From Acaryochloris thomasi RCC1774 (GTDB lineage Bacteria; Cyanobacteriota; Cyanobacteriia; Thermosynechococcales; Thermosynechococcaceae), in the NCBI RefSeq assembly GCF_003231495.1, contig NZ_PQWO01000003.1:399294-431293 (forward strand): DNA of 32,000 nucleotides, written 5' to 3'. The position numbers and the translations under genes are program-made. Shown piece by piece: positions 19,974-32,000 of this stretch. A model generated the notes under the pieces. The model searched no databases. It worked only from the letters and a program-made list of their open reading frames with translations, and had not been told where the DNA came from. Position 1 is the first letter of the stretch. Every line of letters starts with the position of its first letter.

Positions 19974-20012
19974 TAGGGCTGCAGGGTTATAACCTTCAGC
20001 CCTAGCTGTTTT
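19974..20012 (+). terminator. Probable intrinsic terminator after the ctp gene
   Basis: The hairpin TAGGGCTG(cagggttataaccttc)CAGCCCTA spans 19974-20004, with additional inner pairing. A TTTT run follows at 20009-20012. Confidence 0.45.
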
Positions 20013-20095
20013 CGGGACCATCATTACAATCAACTTGATTGAGAGAAACCAGCCTTTCAAGGTAGGATTGGCAAGACGTAAAGAATTGTTGAATC

Positions 20096-20548
20096 ATGGT
20101 TGAGCGACCCATCAAGAGATCTGAGCGCGCCGAGCGTGGCGACGAAGCCAAGCGCGATGATCGCAGTAAGGGAAAAAAAGGGGGTCGCGGTAAAGGTCGA
20201 GGAGATCGTGAGGAACGCAAGCCTAAAATTTCTCCTGCGTTGATGCGTGGCCCCAAACCCAGTGCAAAGTCAGCCGAGCCGGAACCAGAATCGGTGGAGC
20301 CAACGGTAACGGATGCCGTTGTCGAAGAAAATCCAGAAACAGCTTCAGAAGCCCCGGCTGCGGCAGAGTCTTCATCGGAGGAAGCGACGGCAGCGCCCAC
20401 TGCAGAGGCAGCAAAGGACGCGACGACTGCTGTAGAAGAAAGTCCAGAAACAGCTTCAGAAAATCCAGCGACAGCAGAATCTTCGTCTGATACGACAGAG
20501 ACAGATCCCGCCGCAGAGGCAGCAGAGCCGGTTGCAGAAGACGTTTAG
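20096..20548 (+). CDS. Highly charged low-complexity protein: basic N-terminus and acidic A/E/S/T-rich tail with an internal duplication
   Basis: The 150-aa ORF reads MVERPIKRSERAERGDEAKRDDRSKGKKGGRGKGRGDREERKPK, then VEENPETASEAPAAAESSS ... VEESPETASENPATAESSS. The strand choice is uncertain because the mirror ORFs on the minus strand are equally open. Confidence 0.45.
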   Translation: MVERPIKRSERAERGDEAKRDDRSKGKKGGRGKGRGDREERKPKISPALMRGPKPSAKSAEPEPESVEPTVTDAVVEENPETASEAPAAAESSSEEATAAPTAEAAKDATTAVEESPETASENPATAESSSDTTETDPAAEAAEPVAEDV

Positions 20549-20600
20549 CCCTCAATTAGGATGGACAAACTGCGCTAATTTTGTCATCTCTCATGCCTAG

Positions 20601-26480: not shown

Positions 26481-26627
26481 AGCTAACTCCTAGATAATTG
26501 AAAATTTTACGCAGCGATCGCTTGCTTCATTGAGTGCAATTCTGCTTGCTCGATCACTGTAGCTAATTGACAAAAGTATGGGTAGTAGAAAAAATTGCAA
26601 TCATAACTTGCGTTGAGAGCAATAAAC

Positions 26628-27512
26628 ATGCACAGCCTCCAGCAGCTATTTATCCAGGTTGTTGAAGCAGGCAGCTTCAAGAAGGCCGCCGAACAGATGC
26701 ACATGGAGCCATCATCTCTAAGCCGTAAGATAGCGGCACTTGAGAAGCACTTACATGTGAAATTGCTGCATCGTTCAACACGTCACACCCGTCCAACCGA
26801 GCTTGGCCAGCAATACTACGAAGGCCTGCGTCGGTTACTCGATGATGAAATAGCTCTGGAAGATGAGATAACCAGTGGTGTCAAGAGACTCAAGGGAACG
26901 CTCAGAGTTAGCGCACCCGTTGACTTTGGCGCTGAATTCGTTGTACCAGTTGTCCATGAGATACTGAAAAGTGCACCTGAGCTGTCCGTGGAATTATTGC
27001 TCGGTAGCCATTTCATCAACTTGGTTGAGCAAAATATTGATGTTGCAGTCCGGATCGGAGAAGCGTCGAAATCTAACTTGCTTGCCAAGAAAATTGGTGA
27101 AGTTTCCAGGGTTCTTGTAGCCAGTCACGACTATTTAAAGCGCTACGGTACGCCGAATACACCTGACGATTTAGTCAATCACAACTTCATTCTATACTCG
27201 CCAATTCAGGCTAGAAGTGATATCGAGTTTGCTGATGGTAATAAATATCCCTATTCAAAAATACGAAGCAACATCACCGTCAATAGCGTGAATGCAATTC
27301 GAACTTTAGTTAAAGATGGATTGGGCATTCATTTAGGGCCAGCTTGGGTATTTAAAGAGGCCTTGGAAAATGGAGATGTTTACAAAGTTCTATCAAAGTA
27401 CAATTTAAAAAGCTTTCCTATTCATGCTGTCTATTCAGCCCGAGCATATCTACCTAAAAAAACAGAAGAGTTTATCCAACAGCTATCAAGGTACATAGAA
27501 CGTAGTATTTAA
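26628..27512 (+). CDS. LysR family transcriptional regulator
   Basis: The N-terminal wHTH reads LQQLFIQVVEAGSFKKAAEQMHMEPSSLSRKIAALEKHLHVKLLHRSTR. A LysR substrate-binding domain follows. The ATG at 26628 is preferred over the TTG at 26613. Confidence 0.9.
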   Translation: MHSLQQLFIQVVEAGSFKKAAEQMHMEPSSLSRKIAALEKHLHVKLLHRSTRHTRPTELGQQYYEGLRRLLDDEIALEDEITSGVKRLKGTLRVSAPVDFGAEFVVPVVHEILKSAPELSVELLLGSHFINLVEQNIDVAVRIGEASKSNLLAKKIGEVSRVLVASHDYLKRYGTPNTPDDLVNHNFILYSPIQARSDIEFADGNKYPYSKIRSNITVNSVNAIRTLVKDGLGIHLGPAWVFKEALENGDVYKVLSKYNLKSFPIHAVYSARAYLPKKTEEFIQQLSRYIERSI

Positions 27513-27671: not shown

Positions 27672-27956
27672 ATGGTCTCCGGCCCGCCTCCAGAGGACAA
27701 CTACATAAACAGCCATCGCAACTCTAAAGATCGCTACCTAAGCAACGCCGCGAGAGAAAAAACGGATGTCCTGGTTCCGGTCGATCTTTGGGACTCTCTT
27801 CTAGCCCTGCTGCCAACACATAGTGGTCTCGACCCCATAGATGAGTTAGAACCCAACAATCAAACCCTGGTTGACCTCAAGGCTGCTACCTAGGAAGCTC
27901 AAGCCGGTCAAACCGTCCCGATGCCTGAACTGTGGCACGATCTCAATCAGAACTAG
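27672..27956 (+). pseudogene. Putative antitoxin gene interrupted by an in-frame TAG
   Basis: The ORF stops at the TAG at 27891-27893. The same frame continues as EAQAGQTVPMPELWHDLNQN to the TAG at 27954-27956, 1 nt before the toxin ATG. This is typical TA operon geometry. No antitoxin family recognised. Confidence 0.45.
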
Positions 27957-27957
27957 C

Positions 27958-28248
27958 ATGACTGAGGTTCACTTTATTACCTCCATCAAGCGTCGTCTGA
28001 AATCTCTAGCTAAGCGCTATCGCCAGAGCCAGAGAGATATTCAGCCCATTCTTGAAAACCTGCAAACAGGAAATTTCGTAGGAGACAAAATCCCCGGCAT
28101 ATCTATGACTGCCTTCAAGGTTAGAGCCAAAAATAGCGCCGTCTCTGTGGGTAAGAGCGGTGGCTACTGACTCATCGATCAAGTCCATTCACCTGATTTC
28201 GCTTCCTTATTGCTCATTTATGCCAAATCAGACCAAGCTGATAAGTAG
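27958..28248 (+). pseudogene. RelE/ParE-family toxin gene with an in-frame TGA
   Basis: MTEVHFITSIKRRLKSLAKRYRQSQRDIQPILENLQTGNFVGDKIPGISMTAFKVRAKNSAVSVGKSGGY is followed by the TGA at 28168-28170. The same frame then continues LIDQVHSPDFASLLLIYAKSDQADK. The family normally reads GKSGGYR(L/V)IY...(L)LxIYxKSxQxD, so the TGA sits where an Arg codon (CGA) is expected. Confidence 0.7.
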
Positions 28249-28299
28249 ATAGACTTAATTGACTTGAAGATTCCTGATTAAATTCAATATCGTTGCATT

Positions 28300-28355
28300 G
28301 GCCCTCACCCCCAGCCCCTCGCCCAACATTGGGCAAGGGGCTGGGGGTGAGGGCC
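28300..28355. repeat. GC-rich near-perfect 56-bp palindrome (MITE/hairpin-like element)
   Basis: GGCCCTCACCCCCAGCCCCTCGCCCAA-CA-TTGGGCAAGGGGCTGGGGGTGAGGGCC has 27-nt arms with a single mismatch (28320/28335). It is intergenic. Confidence 0.85.
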
Positions 28356-28435
28356 ATGTAGAGCATTTGCTAATATTTGATCTTTAACTTGATTCTGCCT
28401 CGCTACTTATCAGTCTCAAAGAGTTAGAAACATTA

Positions 28436-28471
28436 ATGCGAGAGGCGTAGGCCATGCTATCCCTCTCGCAT
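28436..28471. repeat. 10-bp perfect inverted repeat with a 16-nt loop
   Basis: ATGCGAGAGG (28436-28445) pairs with CCTCTCGCAT (28462-28471). It lies inside the decayed MNT copy. Confidence 0.7.
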
Positions 28472-28491
28472 CGGAGAAAGCAGATCTTGTT

Positions 28492-28563
28492 TAAGTGGTA
28501 CTCGGTTCTGTGTTGGGTCATGAAGATTTTGAGAAGATCTTAGATGCGATCGCGTTGCAGGAC
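28492..28563 (-). pseudogene. Decayed MNT nucleotidyltransferase 5' segment (second remnant)
   Basis: The minus strand reads VLQRDRI*DLLKIFMTQHRTEYHLNK, against the intact LQRDLLQERLKTFMTQHGTEYHLHK. An in-frame TAA corresponds to plus-strand TTA at 28540-28542, and there is no start codon. Weaker similarity (KICFL.. / ..AYASR) may extend down to about 28400. Confidence 0.55.
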
Positions 28564-28614: not shown

Positions 28615-28990
28615 TCAAGTTGAAGTGTTTTCCAGATCGTTGATCATTTGCTGTAATGTTCCGATCAGCACGGGAATATTATCTCGGCAGACGTTGTAGA
28701 GCTGCTGTGGATCTGTTTGAAAGTATCCATGCGCTAGGACATCACGAAGTCCGATTGCACCACGCCATTCCACTTGAGGGTATTGGGCAAATAGCTGACC
28801 TTCAATGATCAGGTCAATTTTCTTGGACTCTTCACCTGCTGCAATCCGAACCATGCAGATGCTGTCCATGCGGTCTACACCGGCGTCGCTATTGATGAAA
28901 TCTGACTTTAGCAAACCGTCGGGGAATCCGCTCTAATATTGATAGAACCCGTTCTAATCGCTCTCGCAGTAGAGTTTTGCGATCAGACAT
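28615..28990 (-). pseudogene. HEPN-domain (DUF86/HepT-type) toxin gene, apparently frameshifted near its 5' end
   Basis: The ATG at 28990 overlaps the MNT stop by 8 nt. It gives MSDRKTLLRERLERVLSILERIPRRFAKVRFHQ*, with the stop at 28892-28894. A second frame, open from about 28932, gives (SGFPDG)LLKSDFINSDAGVDRMDSICMVRIAAGEE...GLRDVLAHGYF, which carries the Rx4H HEPN motif, and runs to 28615. Joined, the two frames give a normal ~125-aa DUF86 protein. Confidence 0.7.
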
Positions 28991-29288
28991 AGATGGCTTC
29001 TCGTTCAATTCGAGCTTTGAATTGAGGATGTAGATGTGGGTGTAGACGCACGATATCAACTGGACGGTCTAACAGGGCTTCTAGCTCTTGTTTGAGTACG
29101 GCTGTTGTGAATAGGTTTGGCTGATTGGTGGCAAATACAATATCTACGTCACTATCGGGGGTGGCTTGGTTGCGGGCGTAGGAGCCAAAGAAGCCGAGCT
29201 TGTGTAGGTGGTACTCGGTTCCGTGTTGGGTCATGAAGGTTTTGAGGCGTTCTTGGAGGAGATCGCGTTGTAGTACAGCTTTGTTCAT
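28983..29288 (-). CDS. MNT-type nucleotidyltransferase (MntA-like antitoxin of the HEPN/MNT module)
   Basis: From the ATG at 29288 it reads MNKAVLQRDLLQERLKTFMTQHGTEYHLHKLGFFGSYARNQATPDSDVDIVF, which fits the GSxxR..x..DxD NTase motif. It is 101 aa. The upstream 24 codons in the track ORF are rejected. Confidence 0.85.
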   Translation of the reverse strand: MNKAVLQRDLLQERLKTFMTQHGTEYHLHKLGFFGSYARNQATPDSDVDIVFATNQPNLFTTAVLKQELEALLDRPVDIVRLHPHLHPQFKARIEREAIYV

Positions 29289-29346
29289 ATCATTATTTCT
29301 TGTAAGCTTATTTCTCGAAGGGCCATTCAATGACTGAAAGCAAGCG

Positions 29347-29532
29347 TTACGGGACAGCATAGTCAGAATGTTCGCGCATTGCAGGATGATGGAAACCCAC
29401 TACAATCTCTTTCCTAGAAATGCCCATCTCTTCTAGTTCTTTATCAACTTCAACATCGGTATTTTTTGCTTGGATCCAAATTTTTTCATCTTTGATATCA
29501 AGCGGAAATAGCCTAGCTATGAATAGAAACAC
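29347..29532 (-). pseudogene. C-terminal remnant of a XisI-family (fdxN-element excision factor) gene
   Basis: LDIKDEKIWIQAKNTDVEVDKELEEMGISRKEIVVGFHHPAMREHSDYAVP matches the C-terminal half of ~110-aa XisI proteins (..HLDIKDGKIWIQ.D.TE..I...L...GIPK..IVL.F..P..R....FA). The N-terminal half is missing. The ORF begins with GTG 9 nt after the upstream gene's stop. Confidence 0.6.
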
Positions 29533-29541
29533 TATGCAAAA

Positions 29542-30240
29542 TCATCGGTTCTGTATAGCAATTCTGTTAGATAAAAGAAAATCTTTTATCTCGAACAAGG
29601 CAATAACAGTGTTTCTGATATTGACCCTAAACTTGCCTTGATTAATCTCACTCAAAAAATCAAATAGGTGCATATAATATTCAAGATAAATTTCTTCATT
29701 GAGTAATTTAATACAAAAATTAGAAAATGATATAGGCTCCTGGCTTCCTTCTTCAGCTAACTGCTCTCCTATACCGTTCAAGTAATTAAGCCATAGACTA
29801 GTTCGATTTGATACGCTGTCCTTGAAATTTTCAATTTTTGTTTGAAAGTTAGCAGTTAATGATTTTCTGCCGAAATTCAGATAAACTACATCTCTTTCAT
29901 ATGAAATAATCCAAAATGAAGCTACAGCGAGCATATATGCAGAAGAAGAAATATAATTTCCATGCTTAGTTGTGTACCAGCTTAGTGACTGAGCATCTCT
30001 AGGAGAAGCTGCAAGAGAAGTCCTCGGGCTATCCATCTTTTGTTCAATCTCTGACAAGCGGTGTTGTAAAGTTTGGCATGCATACCATAGTGGCTTACCA
30101 TATCTGAACAATTGTTTCCGGGCTTCTGATTGCTCATTCAACCTAGGTCCAATCCAATAGTTCTCAACAAGCTTTATGCTTGTTGATGCAATTCCACCTC
30201 CAATTACTCCATAAAGAAGATTAGATATTTGTTCACTCAT
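29542..30240 (-). CDS. Hypothetical 232-aa protein with no recognisable domain, downstream partner of the Ser/Thr kinase
   Basis: The clean ORF is AT-rich like the kinase gene and starts 35 bp downstream of it on the same strand. It has an N-terminal hydrophobic G-rich helix (LLYGVIGGGIASTSIKLV) and a second hydrophobic stretch (SSSAYMLAVASFWIISY). The rest is predicted helical by eye. Confidence 0.6.
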   Translation of the reverse strand: MSEQISNLLYGVIGGGIASTSIKLVENYWIGPRLNEQSEARKQLFRYGKPLWYACQTLQHRLSEIEQKMDSPRTSLAASPRDAQSLSWYTTKHGNYISSSAYMLAVASFWIISYERDVVYLNFGRKSLTANFQTKIENFKDSVSNRTSLWLNYLNGIGEQLAEEGSQEPISFSNFCIKLLNEEIYLEYYMHLFDFLSEINQGKFRVNIRNTVIALFEIKDFLLSNRIAIQNR

Positions 30241-30275
30241 TGTTTTTAAGATCTGTCTAAATCAATATTTTTTCA

Positions 30276-31847
30276 CTATGAGCATGCTTCAGATTTCGAA
30301 TCAATTGTGAAAGAATCATCAGGGATCCACCCTTGACGCCCTCCAGATTCAATTTTTAGCCATCTGCGTTCACTTATAGGCGTTTTTCTCAAAGTAGTAC
30401 TGATAACATAGTAATCATTTGGTTTGACAATGATAATTTCTTGGCTAAAGGGATCAGGCTCACTATGCAAAGATACAAGTCCACTCGTAATTGTGATTAT
30501 GCAATAATTTCTTCCTTCAGCTTCCCGTTTCTCTTTTTCCTGTTCTATACGTCTTTGTTCAGCAGCTCTTTCTTGTTCTATACGTCTTTGTTCAGCAGCA
30601 GCCTTTTCCTGTTCTATGCGTCTTTGTTCAGCAGTCCTCTCAGAAACGCCATTTTCTTGGTTTACCAGATTGCCTCTACCGACTACTTCAGCTTGAGGTT
30701 TATTTTCTGAAGTTGTAGGTTCAGGGGTACCAGACTGATTTAGTCCTACCTCTTGTTCTGGCAAATCTTTTGGGGGATCTGAATTAGGAGCAAGATCTCC
30801 ATTACCAGGTAGAGGAGGAGGCAGAAAAAATTCTTGAAACTTTAGTCTCAAGGATGGAGAACTAACCACTAGTATTGACCCTAATGTTATTAATACTCCA
30901 AATCCTAAGAATACCCCCCTAAAAAAGGGTGAAGATCTCAATCGTCTCTTAGATGTAGTTCCTTGAATTACAGTATTACTGCCATTTGCCGATCCATTTG
31001 CATCCAATGATGAAATAGAAGTAGTCTTGGATTGTAAAGCATTTTTCATTTTTTGCGCAGAAGCAAATCTTTGGGGAGGGTGGTTCTTAATTGCTTTATC
31101 AAGTATCGATGTAAGCCAAGGAGATAGTTTTGGGCAATGAGCTTGCCATAAAATGTCACCCGTACTTGAATCAGTAGGAAAATCATGAGGGAGCTTTCCA
31201 CTAAGTAAATAGATAGCAGTAAGCCCTAAACTATAGAGGTCACTGGAGGGAATAGGCCTACCAATAGCTTGTTCTGGAGGTAAAAAACCTGGAGTACCTA
31301 TTCGAACTGAGCTATTTATACTACCGTGTGTATTTAAGTGAATACCCATGATTTCTTTTACAGCTCCAAAGTCAATCAGTATGGGCTTGTTATCATTTTC
31401 TCGTATTATAATGTTATCTGGCTTAATGTCTCTATGAATAATACCTTCAGAATGAATATAATCCACAATATTGAGTATATTAATTGTTAGATTTCGAATA
31501 TATTTCTCCTTCATTAACCCCTCTGATTGCAGTTTTTGTGTTAGCGTTTTTCCTTCAACCCACTCTTGAACGAGATAGAACATTCCTCGCTCTGAGAAGA
31601 AAGCATATAAAGTAGGAATCTGACTATGTTTTTGGCCTAAGTTCTCCAAGACAGAAGCTTCCCTTTTGAATCTTTCTTGTACAAGATTTTGTGCTGTTTT
31701 GCTACCCGATATGGGTTGTAATTCCTTGATTACACAGTATGATTTAGAAGGCAGGTGAGTATCTTCTGTCAAATATGTTTTGCCGAAGCCACCCTGACCT
31801 AAGACTCTTAGGAGCCTATATCGGTTATTTAAAACTTTTAGAGACAT
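30276..31847 (-). CDS. Membrane-anchored Ser/Thr protein kinase with a repeat-containing linker and a C-terminal SH3b-like domain
   Basis: Kinase motifs present: G-loop GQGGFGKTY, VIKEL (Lys), HRDIKPDN, DFG, GTPGFLPPEQ and DLYSLGLT. The TM helix is FFRGVFLGFGVLITLGSILVV. A Pro-rich segment is followed by 3x AEQRRIEQE(K/R)AA. The C-terminus reads ..RRWLKIESGGRQGWIPDDSF and is SH3b-like. Confidence 0.9.
   Translation of the reverse strand: MSLKVLNNRYRLLRVLGQGGFGKTYLTEDTHLPSKSYCVIKELQPISGSKTAQNLVQERFKREASVLENLGQKHSQIPTLYAFFSERGMFYLVQEWVEGKTLTQKLQSEGLMKEKYIRNLTINILNIVDYIHSEGIIHRDIKPDNIIIRENDNKPILIDFGAVKEIMGIHLNTHGSINSSVRIGTPGFLPPEQAIGRPIPSSDLYSLGLTAIYLLSGKLPHDFPTDSSTGDILWQAHCPKLSPWLTSILDKAIKNHPPQRFASAQKMKNALQSKTTSISSLDANGSANGSNTVIQGTTSKRRLRSSPFFRGVFLGFGVLITLGSILVVSSPSLRLKFQEFFLPPPLPGNGDLAPNSDPPKDLPEQEVGLNQSGTPEPTTSENKPQAEVVGRGNLVNQENGVSERTAEQRRIEQEKAAAEQRRIEQERAAEQRRIEQEKEKREAEGRNYCIITITSGLVSLHSEPDPFSQEIIIVKPNDYYVISTTLRKTPISERRWLKIESGGRQGWIPDDSFTIDSKSEACS
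30535..30637. repeat. Three tandem copies of a 33/36-bp coding repeat inside the kinase gene
   Basis: TGTTCTAT(A/G)CGTCTTTGTTCAGCAG starts at 30541, 30574 and 30610. It encodes the (A)EQRRIEQE(K/R)AA repeats on the minus strand. Confidence 0.85.
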
Positions 31848-31848
31848 A

Positions 31849-32000
31849 GGTAACTCCGCAGAATATGATCAAAATATGGTAGTCCTAAATAGGTAAGGAT
31901 TGATTGTAATGGTGAATAAAGTACCAAATAGCACCGATATGATTCTCTAGCTTTTTGGAGAATGACAGTGTCTTGCGCACCAATCTTGAGACGCGTTGGC
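31849..32000 (-). mobile_element. End of an IS1-family insertion sequence; the element continues beyond the window
   Basis: It contains the transposase 3' end listed as a separate feature. The terminal sequence GGTAACTCCGCAGAATATGATC at 31849 resembles the E. coli IS1 terminus GGTAATGACTCCAACTTATTGAT, recalled from memory. Confidence 0.65.
31885..32000 (-). CDS. IS1-family transposase, C-terminal 37 codons (partial)
   Basis: Manual minus-strand translation gives QRVSRLVRKTLSFSKKLENHIGAIWYFIHHYNQSLPI*. Compare the IS1 InsB C-terminus ..[30 protein letters not shown]. Confidence 0.7.
   Translation of the reverse strand, partial: QRVSRLVRKTLSFSKKLENHIGAIWYFIHHYNQSLPI

Follow-up and report, generated by a model that had tools for sequence, protein, structure and literature searches.

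An AT-rich two-gene block of Acaryochloris thomasi RCC1774 encodes a receptor-type Ser/Thr kinase and a member of a rare unannotated protein family

Introduction

Receptor-type Hanks kinases, such as PknB, StkP, Stk1 and the Spk-like kinases of cyanobacteria, comprise an N-terminal cytoplasmic Pkinase domain, one transmembrane helix and an extracytoplasmic sensor module. A kinase with this layout is encoded by the locus described here, a two-gene block at positions 29542-31847 of a 32,000-nucleotide stretch of the Acaryochloris thomasi RCC1774 genome (contig NZ_PQWO01000003.1), which is hereafter called the window. The second gene of the block encodes a protein of 232 residues. Several features distinguish this kinase from the described receptor kinases. 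Unlike PknB and Stk1, it contains no PASTA repeats (no PASTA Pfam match), and the PASTA kinase model NF033483 reaches 145 bits against a cutoff of 450, with residues 4-278 alone being aligned. Unlike that of PknB and StkP, its ectodomain comprises a charged spacer built from repeats and a domain of about 77 residues that is probably clamped by two cysteines.

Hanks kinases also occur in phage defence. The Stk2 kinase of Staphylococcus is a phage-triggered abortive-infection switch that causes growth arrest; it is a soluble single-gene system, which is activated by a phage protein. In contrast to Stk2, the kinase of the window is a membrane receptor with a predicted periplasmic domain and a conserved small neighbour. 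PD-T4-6, as PADLOC models it, is a single-gene Ser/Thr-kinase anti-phage system from E. coli. The corresponding model (PDLC04045) matches the kinase of the window with an E-value of 3.2e-98, and this match is confined to the generic kinase domain (profile positions 29-301 of 350). The core PASTA kinase carried by all strains of S. thermophilus receives the PD-T4-6 label too, and its phage phenotype was very mild (PMC11514479). We therefore rejected this match as evidence of defence, as the label means no more than "Hanks kinase".

With regard to the small protein, two kinds of described proteins can be compared. SLATT effectors are small, N-terminally anchored helical proteins encoded beside variable enzymes in mobile islands, and in this respect the family of the 232-residue protein is similar to them. 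However, the family exhibits one predicted transmembrane helix, against two to three in SLATT effectors, and no nucleotide-signalling enzymes are found nearby; none of the 74 members of the family alignment (A3) matches a SLATT Pfam family. The second kind is a transmembrane protein encoded beside UG1 (DRT1) and UG5-large reverse transcriptase (RT)-nitrilase genes, which was named "cluster 85" (PMC9226505) or drt1b (PMC13275509). It adjoins about 18% of drt1 genes (PMC13275509, PMC9226505), its role is unknown and the majority of DRT1 systems function in its absence (PMC13275509), although deletion of the transmembrane gene was reported to compromise UG1 defence (PMC13436386). Members of our family have a similar size (232-250 residues, against 229 positions in the RTasTM profile, which we take below to represent Drt1b) and a similar layout, with an N-terminal transmembrane helix followed by a helical domain. 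The partners differ: the family is found with a kinase or with no partner at all, and no RT-nitrilase is present nearby. The kinase is a new member of a very well-known kind. The family of the 232-residue protein, in contrast, is undescribed and may, judging from profile similarity, be a distant branch of the poorly understood Drt1b proteins. We found no description of a pairing between a kinase and a Drt1b-like protein in the literature.

Results

The two genes are paired in the three closest loci

The block comprises two intact open reading frames (ORFs), which are located 35 nt apart on the same strand, as the original prediction had placed them:

30276-31847, minus strand: kinase gene (ORF call), 523 residues, annotated as "Serine/threonine-protein kinase C" of A. 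thomasi RCC1774
30241-30275, minus strand: spacer of 35 nt from the kinase stop to the start of the 232-residue gene
29542-30240, minus strand: ORF of 232 residues (ORF call), identical to the hypothetical protein C1752_01491

The spacer exhibits no terminator-like hairpin, all the terminator-like sites that were found being inside the kinase coding sequence, and the arrangement of the two genes suggests that they are probably co-transcribed.

The three closest homologues of the 232-residue protein (100, 53, and 50% identity) all have the kinase, or its C-terminal domain, encoded immediately upstream on the same strand (3/3). In Cyanobacteria bacterium J06621_11 (locus L001), the best homologue of the kinase, P0003, which exhibits the same architecture and 63% identity over the kinase domain and the juxtamembrane region, is followed on the same strand by a gene for 237 residues that is homologous to the 232-residue ORF (53% identity, E 5e-99). 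In the third locus (L002), a metagenomic contig of 1.6 kb, an ORF fragment ending with the C-terminal domain of the kinase (53% identity, E 5e-25) stops 55 nt before the gene of P0122, which is 50% identical to the 232-residue protein. The similarity between the window and the J06621_11 locus is restricted to the two coding sequences. The latter is flanked by a group II intron, a DDE transposase, an astacin-like protease and an nSTAND-WD40 protein, whereas IS1, XisI and MNT/HepT sequences surround the block in the window. In each of the three loci, the two genes are AT-richer than the sequence around them.

As the pairing is conserved between unrelated flanks, the kinase tail is absent from the other 118 of the best kinase matches and the spacer is free of terminators, the two genes of the closest clade probably travel as a pair and, as far as sequence comparison can indicate, probably function as one. 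We tentatively prefer to read the block as a membrane signalling module of two genes, which was acquired horizontally and moves among cyanobacteria as a unit.

The block is compositionally foreign

The drop in GC content that had been noticed from single lines of sequence was recovered in 500-nt windows: the GC content is 0.33-0.41 from 29.5 kb to the end of the window and about 0.47-0.58 across most of the window. The GC content at third codon positions (GC3) is 0.26 for the kinase gene (z = -5.6) and 0.29 for the 232-residue ORF (z = -5.0), the reference being the 27 other genes of the window (mean 0.529, standard deviation 0.048). The residues K, N, I, E, and Y, which have AT-favouring codons, are abundant in the translations of both genes. 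Nevertheless, as the GC3 shift concerns synonymous positions, amino-acid content does not explain the composition. The HIP1 octamer (GCGATCGC) occurs 15 times in the window, against 0.54 sites expected by chance, and its last site is at 28546. The block is thus devoid of HIP1, as originally observed, but this carries little weight: with 1.2 sites expected within the block, the probability of finding none is about 0.3, which is not significant taken alone.

The best relatives of the kinase (63% identity) and of the 232-residue protein (53% identity) are both found in an unrelated cyanobacterium, where the cassette is AT-rich too, and no homologue closer than these was found among 5.8 billion clusters, other Acaryochloris included. 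On the high-coordinate side, the block adjoins the remains of an insertion sequence:

31885-32000, minus strand: 3' end of an IS1-family transposase gene (DDE_Tnp_IS1 match, E 0.002)

The translation of this fragment (QRVSRLVRKTLSFSKKLENHIGAIWYFIHHYNQSLPI*) aligns to positions 98-126 of the 131 positions of DDE_Tnp_IS1. The fragment stops 37 nt upstream of the start codon of the kinase gene, and its other end is located beyond the window. Horizontal acquisition of the block, which had been proposed from the sequence, is well supported, because the GC3 of both genes is 5 standard deviations below that of the other genes, the relatives are distant and in an unrelated cyanobacterium, and an IS1 end adjoins the block.

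The kinase exhibits a receptor architecture with an uncommon tail

The kinase comprises the following parts:

31047-31820, minus strand: catalytic domain, residues 10-267 (Pkinase, PF00069, E 1.7e-38)
30855-30929, minus strand: single transmembrane helix, residues ~307-331 (Kyte-Doolittle 19-residue windows strongest at residues 310-330, 2.25)
30535-30634, minus strand: tandem repeat, 33 bp x 2.9, encoding AEQRRIEQEKAA units (TRF score 156, 88% matches; direct-repeat family D2)
30279-30509, minus strand: C-terminal domain of ~77 residues, bracketed by the conserved C449 and C522

The Pkinase match scores 133 bits against a gathering cutoff of 31.7, and all catalytic motifs are present in the translation (G17QGGFG22, K41, E63, H138RD140, N145, and D159FG161), so the prediction of a complete and intact kinase holds. 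By its sequence, it is a bona fide Hanks-type Ser/Thr kinase of the receptor type that is typical of cyanobacteria. The closest sequence relatives in the PDB are PknB/StkP-type kinases. A total of 5687 homologues were found at E<=1e-10. The majority come from cyanobacteria and share 55-60% identity with the kinase over its catalytic domain, and their ectodomains are interchangeable, comprising YARHG, SH3_3, DUF4101, PDZ and TPR modules.

The hydrophobicity profile agrees with the single transmembrane helix expected. As the helix is preceded by a KRRLR cluster, the positive-inside rule places the kinase domain in the cytoplasm and the C-terminal 190 residues probably outside it. This outer part consists of three pieces: a Pro-rich stretch, the tandem repeat and the terminal domain of ~77 residues. 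The tandem repeat, which had been described as a triple EQRRIEQEKAA repeat, is likely a charged helical spacer. The linker repeats differ between homologues and are all charged, with EEAAARQAQ units in P0003, which suggests that the linker evolves by repeat turnover.

The C-terminal domain exhibits 49-53% identity in the two other kinase-linked loci. C449 and C522 are invariant and could form a periplasmic disulfide clamp. This domain is present in two of the 120 best kinase matches and absent from the other 118. With regard to the SH3b-like character claimed for the tail, matches to SH3 models do exist, but all of them are below threshold. They include SH3_4 for the domain of the window (E 0.06, 13.5 bits, cutoff 24.1), SH3_3 for the domain of the L002 homologue (E 0.011, 16.3 bits, cutoff 27), and also SH3_2 and SH3_1. 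When a profile of the three domains was compared with the PDB, spectrin SH3 was matched over the W-x-k-I-E-V-x-G-R-Q-G-w/f segment, again below threshold (E 0.4). An SH3-like fold is plausible for this domain.

The 232-residue protein belongs to a rare helical family

No match was found for the 232-residue protein in Pfam, NCBIfam, PADLOC (E<=1) or PHROGs, so that the original prediction was right to assign it to no family. A fast word-index homology search retrieved the protein itself only, which was misleading given the result of an exhaustive HMMER search of 1.84 billion representatives: 68 clusters were found at E<=1e-3, 37 at E<=1e-10, and 13 at E<=1e-30. These clusters are all unnamed or "hypothetical" and are metagenomic for the most part. 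On the basis of these homologues, the protein is no orphan and is a member of a rare unannotated family. At E<=0.01, none of the 74 aligned members matches any Pfam family. A T/S-S-T/S-A-Y segment is conserved at residues ~98-102 and is a candidate site of phosphorylation by the kinase.

AlphaFold2 gave a confident model when run on the family alignment (mean pLDDT 92.4, pTM 0.84), which was used in place of the unusable single-sequence model (pLDDT 38). The modelled protein consists of alpha-helices throughout: the N-terminal one is long (residues 3-67), and six more come after it. Foldseek returned nothing significant in the PDB (best E 0.08, TM scores <=0.37) or in BFVD (best E 0.11), which bears out the description of the fold as unrecognisable, and the family profile matched no PDB sequence. 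The Foldseek matches to PA26/PA28, TenA and designed bundles were discarded as generic helical-bundle noise.

Across the family, the N-terminal segment has the properties of a membrane anchor, as it reaches a Kyte-Doolittle value of at least 1.6 in a 19-residue window in 54 of the 74 members. As K and R residues mostly follow the N-terminal helix (3.3 after against 0.8 before), the topology of the family is probably N-out, C-in. The helical domain would then be cytoplasmic, like the kinase domain.

In the J06621_11 homologue (L001 7286-7999), residues 5-66 give a weak match (E 1.4e-4) to phrog_5606, a family of phage proteins that has no known function; its profile likewise comprises 232 positions. 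This may be a phage-borne relative or a mere artefact of the transmembrane helix.

Members of the family weakly resemble the RTasTM model

When all members of the family were scanned with PADLOC, one model was recurrent, namely PDLC03799 "RTasTM" (DRT), which comprises 229 positions. It was matched by eight of the 74 aligned members (best E 2e-4) and by four cyanobacterial or metagenomic members, that is, by at least 12 relatives in total. These matches are weak (E 2e-4 to 0.02, 12-19 bits). Residues 21-223 of P0130 align to positions 34-221 of the model, and residues ~93-225 of P0128, P0134 and the members in loci L009, L010, L023 and L033 align to positions 94-220. The register of the alignment is constant across matches, and the aligned part is the globular domain, the transmembrane segment being excluded. 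The family and RTasTM are thus likely to be remotely homologous. From the name of the model and from published descriptions (PMC9226505, PMC13275509), we infer that RTasTM corresponds to Drt1b/"cluster 85".

The J06621_11 locus contains a reverse transcriptase 1.1 kb from the kinase gene, which was considered as a possible DRT. This was ruled out, as it is the reverse transcriptase of a group II intron (L001 2683-4447, minus strand, 0.75-1.1 kb upstream of the kinase homologue). This intron exhibits RF02005 domains D1-D4 (137 bits) and an ORF for an intron-type reverse transcriptase/maturase, whose best PDB relatives are group II intron reverse transcriptases.

The wider family occurs in heterogeneous contexts

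Genes were called in 38 loci, comprising the window, L001-L011, and 26 loci from the metagenome scan (L012-L037), which together represent about 25 distinct contexts. The neighbours are heterogeneous and no recurrent partner is apparent across the family. Those that could be recognised are the following:

L003: GDSL lipase, Lipase_3, DUF900, caspase and CotH
L009: PP2C phosphatase
L011: tyrosine recombinase, truncating the family gene
L012, 5022-5345: thioredoxin
L018: ParE
L022: PIN
L023: patatin
L024, 143-496: thioredoxin
L027: PLD
L033: DSP-type phosphatase
L034: IS110 transposase
L036: ParB_N
L041: murB and a disulfide isomerase (PF06491, 3997-4422)

In several other contexts the neighbours are unknown ORFs. 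In most loci with enough flanking sequence, the family gene is AT-richer than its surroundings.

Several candidate partners were considered among these neighbours. The PP2C phosphatase of Oscillatoria (L009) is probably a neighbour by chance, as its gene exhibits a native GC content of 0.55 and the family gene is located in an AT-rich islet. A common theme of phospho-signalling, based on the three kinases, this PP2C, the DSP-type phosphatase of L033 and a SpoIIE-like motif in L022, is suggestive and not established. The recurrence of lipase, patatin and PLD neighbours is insufficient to define a theme.

Two further observations were made on these contexts. Thiol-redox genes directly adjoin family members in three otherwise unrelated contexts (L012, L024, and L041). 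In one soil-metagenome clade, a multi-transmembrane protein of 367-379 residues without Pfam match is encoded upstream of the family gene (L027 2999-4138 and L028 664-1767); its stop overlaps the start of the family gene, and a locally lowered GC content is common to both genes. This protein may be a different dedicated partner.

Surroundings of the block in the window

On the low-coordinate side, the following features precede the block:

29347-29532, minus strand: C-terminal fragment of XisI, 61 residues (PF08869, E 1.2e-17, profile positions 59-110 of 110)
28983-29360, minus strand: MNT gene (Polbeta/NTP_transf_2, E 7.6e-12)
28615-28914, minus strand: HepT gene (HepT-like, E 1.3e-13)

The XisI fragment is found at the low-coordinate border of the AT-rich block; it is context and is located outside the module. 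The MNT/HepT toxin-antitoxin pair, which is near native in composition (GC 0.47), is context as well. Among the flanking elements named in the original prediction, the IS1 end, XisI and MNT/HepT were thus recovered, whereas no Pfam family was matched by the ORF at 27871-28170 that had been called "decayed RelE/ParE", so this element was not confirmed. No Rfam family and no tRNA was found in the window.

Other features of the window were also noted. An 86-nt direct repeat with 84% identity is present at 28478-28563 and 29191-29276, the second copy being located within the 5' part of the MNT gene and the first overlapping a short ORF at 28384-28521 ("MTQHRTEYHLNKICF..."), which is similar to the MNT N-terminus. 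The latter site, just downstream of HepT, thus appears to carry a second copy of MNT that has decayed. The region 28238-28413 contains a 28-nt near-perfect GC-rich palindrome (28299-28356) within paired 34-nt inverted repeats (28238-28271 and 28380-28413, 74% complementary), and looks like a miniature inverted-repeat transposable element or a small dispersed repeat. The LysR-type regulator gene at 26613-27512 is of intermediate composition (GC 0.44, GC3 0.42), with a GC content of 0.39 in the 27.0-27.5 kb window, and the variable region may start near 26.5 kb, well ahead of the kinase cassette. At 20002-20555, three overlapping ORFs of 110-150 residues are found on both strands, of which the plus-strand ORF exhibits an atypical GC3 (0.42 at a GC content of 0.57); the gene call is ambiguous here.

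Discussion

Based on these results, a mechanism can be proposed for the block as a signalling module. The periplasmic domain of the kinase, kept off the membrane by the charged repeat-built spacer, would sense a cue in the envelope. The cytoplasmic kinase domain would then act on the adjacent Drt1b-like protein, whose helical domain would be in the same compartment. The 232-residue protein would thus be a membrane-proximal partner, that is, a substrate, an effector that phosphorylation would switch, or a kinase regulator, and the pair would turn an envelope perturbation into a response at the level of the membrane. Functional coupling of the two proteins is plausible; their physical coupling, and any link to phage defence, would be inferences from the comparisons above.

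Several observations weigh against this mechanism. The kinase domain itself is unremarkable among thousands of cyanobacterial kinases. The pair is known in three instances only, all from one clade, so that descent alone could explain the arrangement, and the spacer in the J06621_11 locus is 478 nt long, against 35 nt in the window. The N-terminal helix of the 232-residue protein itself is Gly-rich and weakly hydrophobic (Kyte-Doolittle 1.18), which makes its insertion in the membrane less certain. This protein gave no RTasTM match (PADLOC, E<=1), no RT-nitrilase is present in the window or in the ~25 contexts of the family, and no family member was found in collections of phages, plasmids and viral contigs. 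Moreover, the kinase domain and its C-terminal domain were both used as queries against all neighbours, and matches were confined to the window, L001 and L002, with none in the ~20 other contexts. The linkage to kinases that the original prediction proposed to look for is therefore conserved in the closest clade and absent from the wider family; for the wider family, this is an outcome that the prediction itself had named as one that would refute it. Finally, the family gene can stand without a kinase in AT-rich islets. In Nostoc sp. LEGE 06077 (L010 6900-8050), the gene is the sole occupant of such an islet, with ccsA-like and tilS-like genes on either side (GC 0.27-0.36, against 0.42-0.48 around). 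In Oscillatoria sp. CS-180 (L009 7900-9500), it is located in an islet of 1.6 kb with two small ORFs, one of which is degenerate and HNH-like (GC ~0.40, against 0.52-0.59 around). Both islets are sharply bounded and lie in housekeeping neighbourhoods, and neither contains a recognisable mobile-element gene. These islets, and the AT-richness of the gene relative to its surroundings in most loci, suggest that the family gene behaves as an independently mobile accessory gene, for which no kinase is needed.

The two genes may thus be functionally independent and simply have been transferred together, their adjacency in three loci reflecting the descent of one transferred fragment. The kinase would then be one of many envelope-sensing kinases and the 232-residue gene a self-sufficient accessory gene that also spreads alone. 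This is a real, if somewhat doubtful, possibility. It accommodates the ~20 kinase-free contexts, the lone islet of Nostoc and the short one of Oscillatoria, the distant members found among housekeeping genes such as murB, the lack of a recurrent partner across the family, and a kinase domain that is 55-60% identical to those of thousands of kinases with interchangeable ectodomains. It accounts less readily for the persistence of the pair through ~50% protein divergence in surroundings that are all different, for the C-terminal domain that the kinases of the three pairs share and that is missing from the other 118 top matches, and for the short spacers (35 and 55 nt) and common strand of the genes.

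The block could also be a kinase-gated abortive-infection or defence module, in which the kinase would either restrain or activate a Drt1b-like, membrane-damaging effector once its periplasmic domain perceives the attack of a phage on the envelope. We consider this unlikely, and a role of the pair in defence is speculative. The similarity of the family to the model of the DRT-associated transmembrane protein is consistent in register, and deletion of the transmembrane gene was reported to compromise UG1 defence (PMC13436386), but the function of Drt1b is unknown and most DRT1 systems do without it (PMC13275509). The composition is foreign and AT-rich, which is typical of accessory immunity genes, and toxin-antitoxin genes and mobile elements abound nearby, with MNT/HepT, XisI and IS1 in the window and ParE, PIN, IS110 and an integrase near relatives. 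In contrast, no defence model matches the 232-residue protein of the window, and its structural model exhibits no significant match to pore-formers or SLATT proteins. The PD-T4-6 label given to the kinase by PADLOC is itself unspecific, as are the models behind it (PMC11514479). This reading is thus retained because of the Drt1b similarity and the mobile, toxin-antitoxin-rich neighbourhood, and because of nothing else. A native origin of the two genes, with an odd composition caused by the abundance of K, N, I, E, and Y in both proteins and not by transfer, is effectively refuted and highly improbable, as it is at synonymous third positions that the composition deviates most (GC3 0.26-0.29 against 0.53), no orthologue above 63% (kinase) or 53% (small protein) identity exists in other genomes, other Acaryochloris included, and an IS1 end is found at the border.

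The implications depend on which of these readings is correct. If the genes are independent, the locus is an ordinary acquired kinase gene beside a hypothetical gene in a stretch rich in mobile elements. If, as in the signalling module that we tentatively prefer, the two proteins work together, they would represent a new output for receptor Ser/Thr kinases, with a dedicated membrane partner in place of the cell-wall and division proteins, and this coupling would place in a functional context a family that Pfam, NCBIfam, and PHROGs do not cover and for which no significant fold match was found in the PDB or BFVD. It is also conceivable, although unlikely, that the family is a portable Drt1b-like membrane effector for varied sensors and that the cassette is an undescribed cyanobacterial kinase-gated abortive-infection or defence system. 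If this is true, the RT-nitrilases of DRT1/UG5 and a periplasm-sensing Hanks kinase would use the same type of effector, and the locus would provide a first handle on the function of Drt1b-type proteins. The weak tie to Drt1b matters, as it has yet to be learned what this accessory protein does in DRT1/UG5 immunity: if one of its relatives is paired with a kinase, or spreads alone, the membrane protein would more likely be an effector module that acts autonomously.

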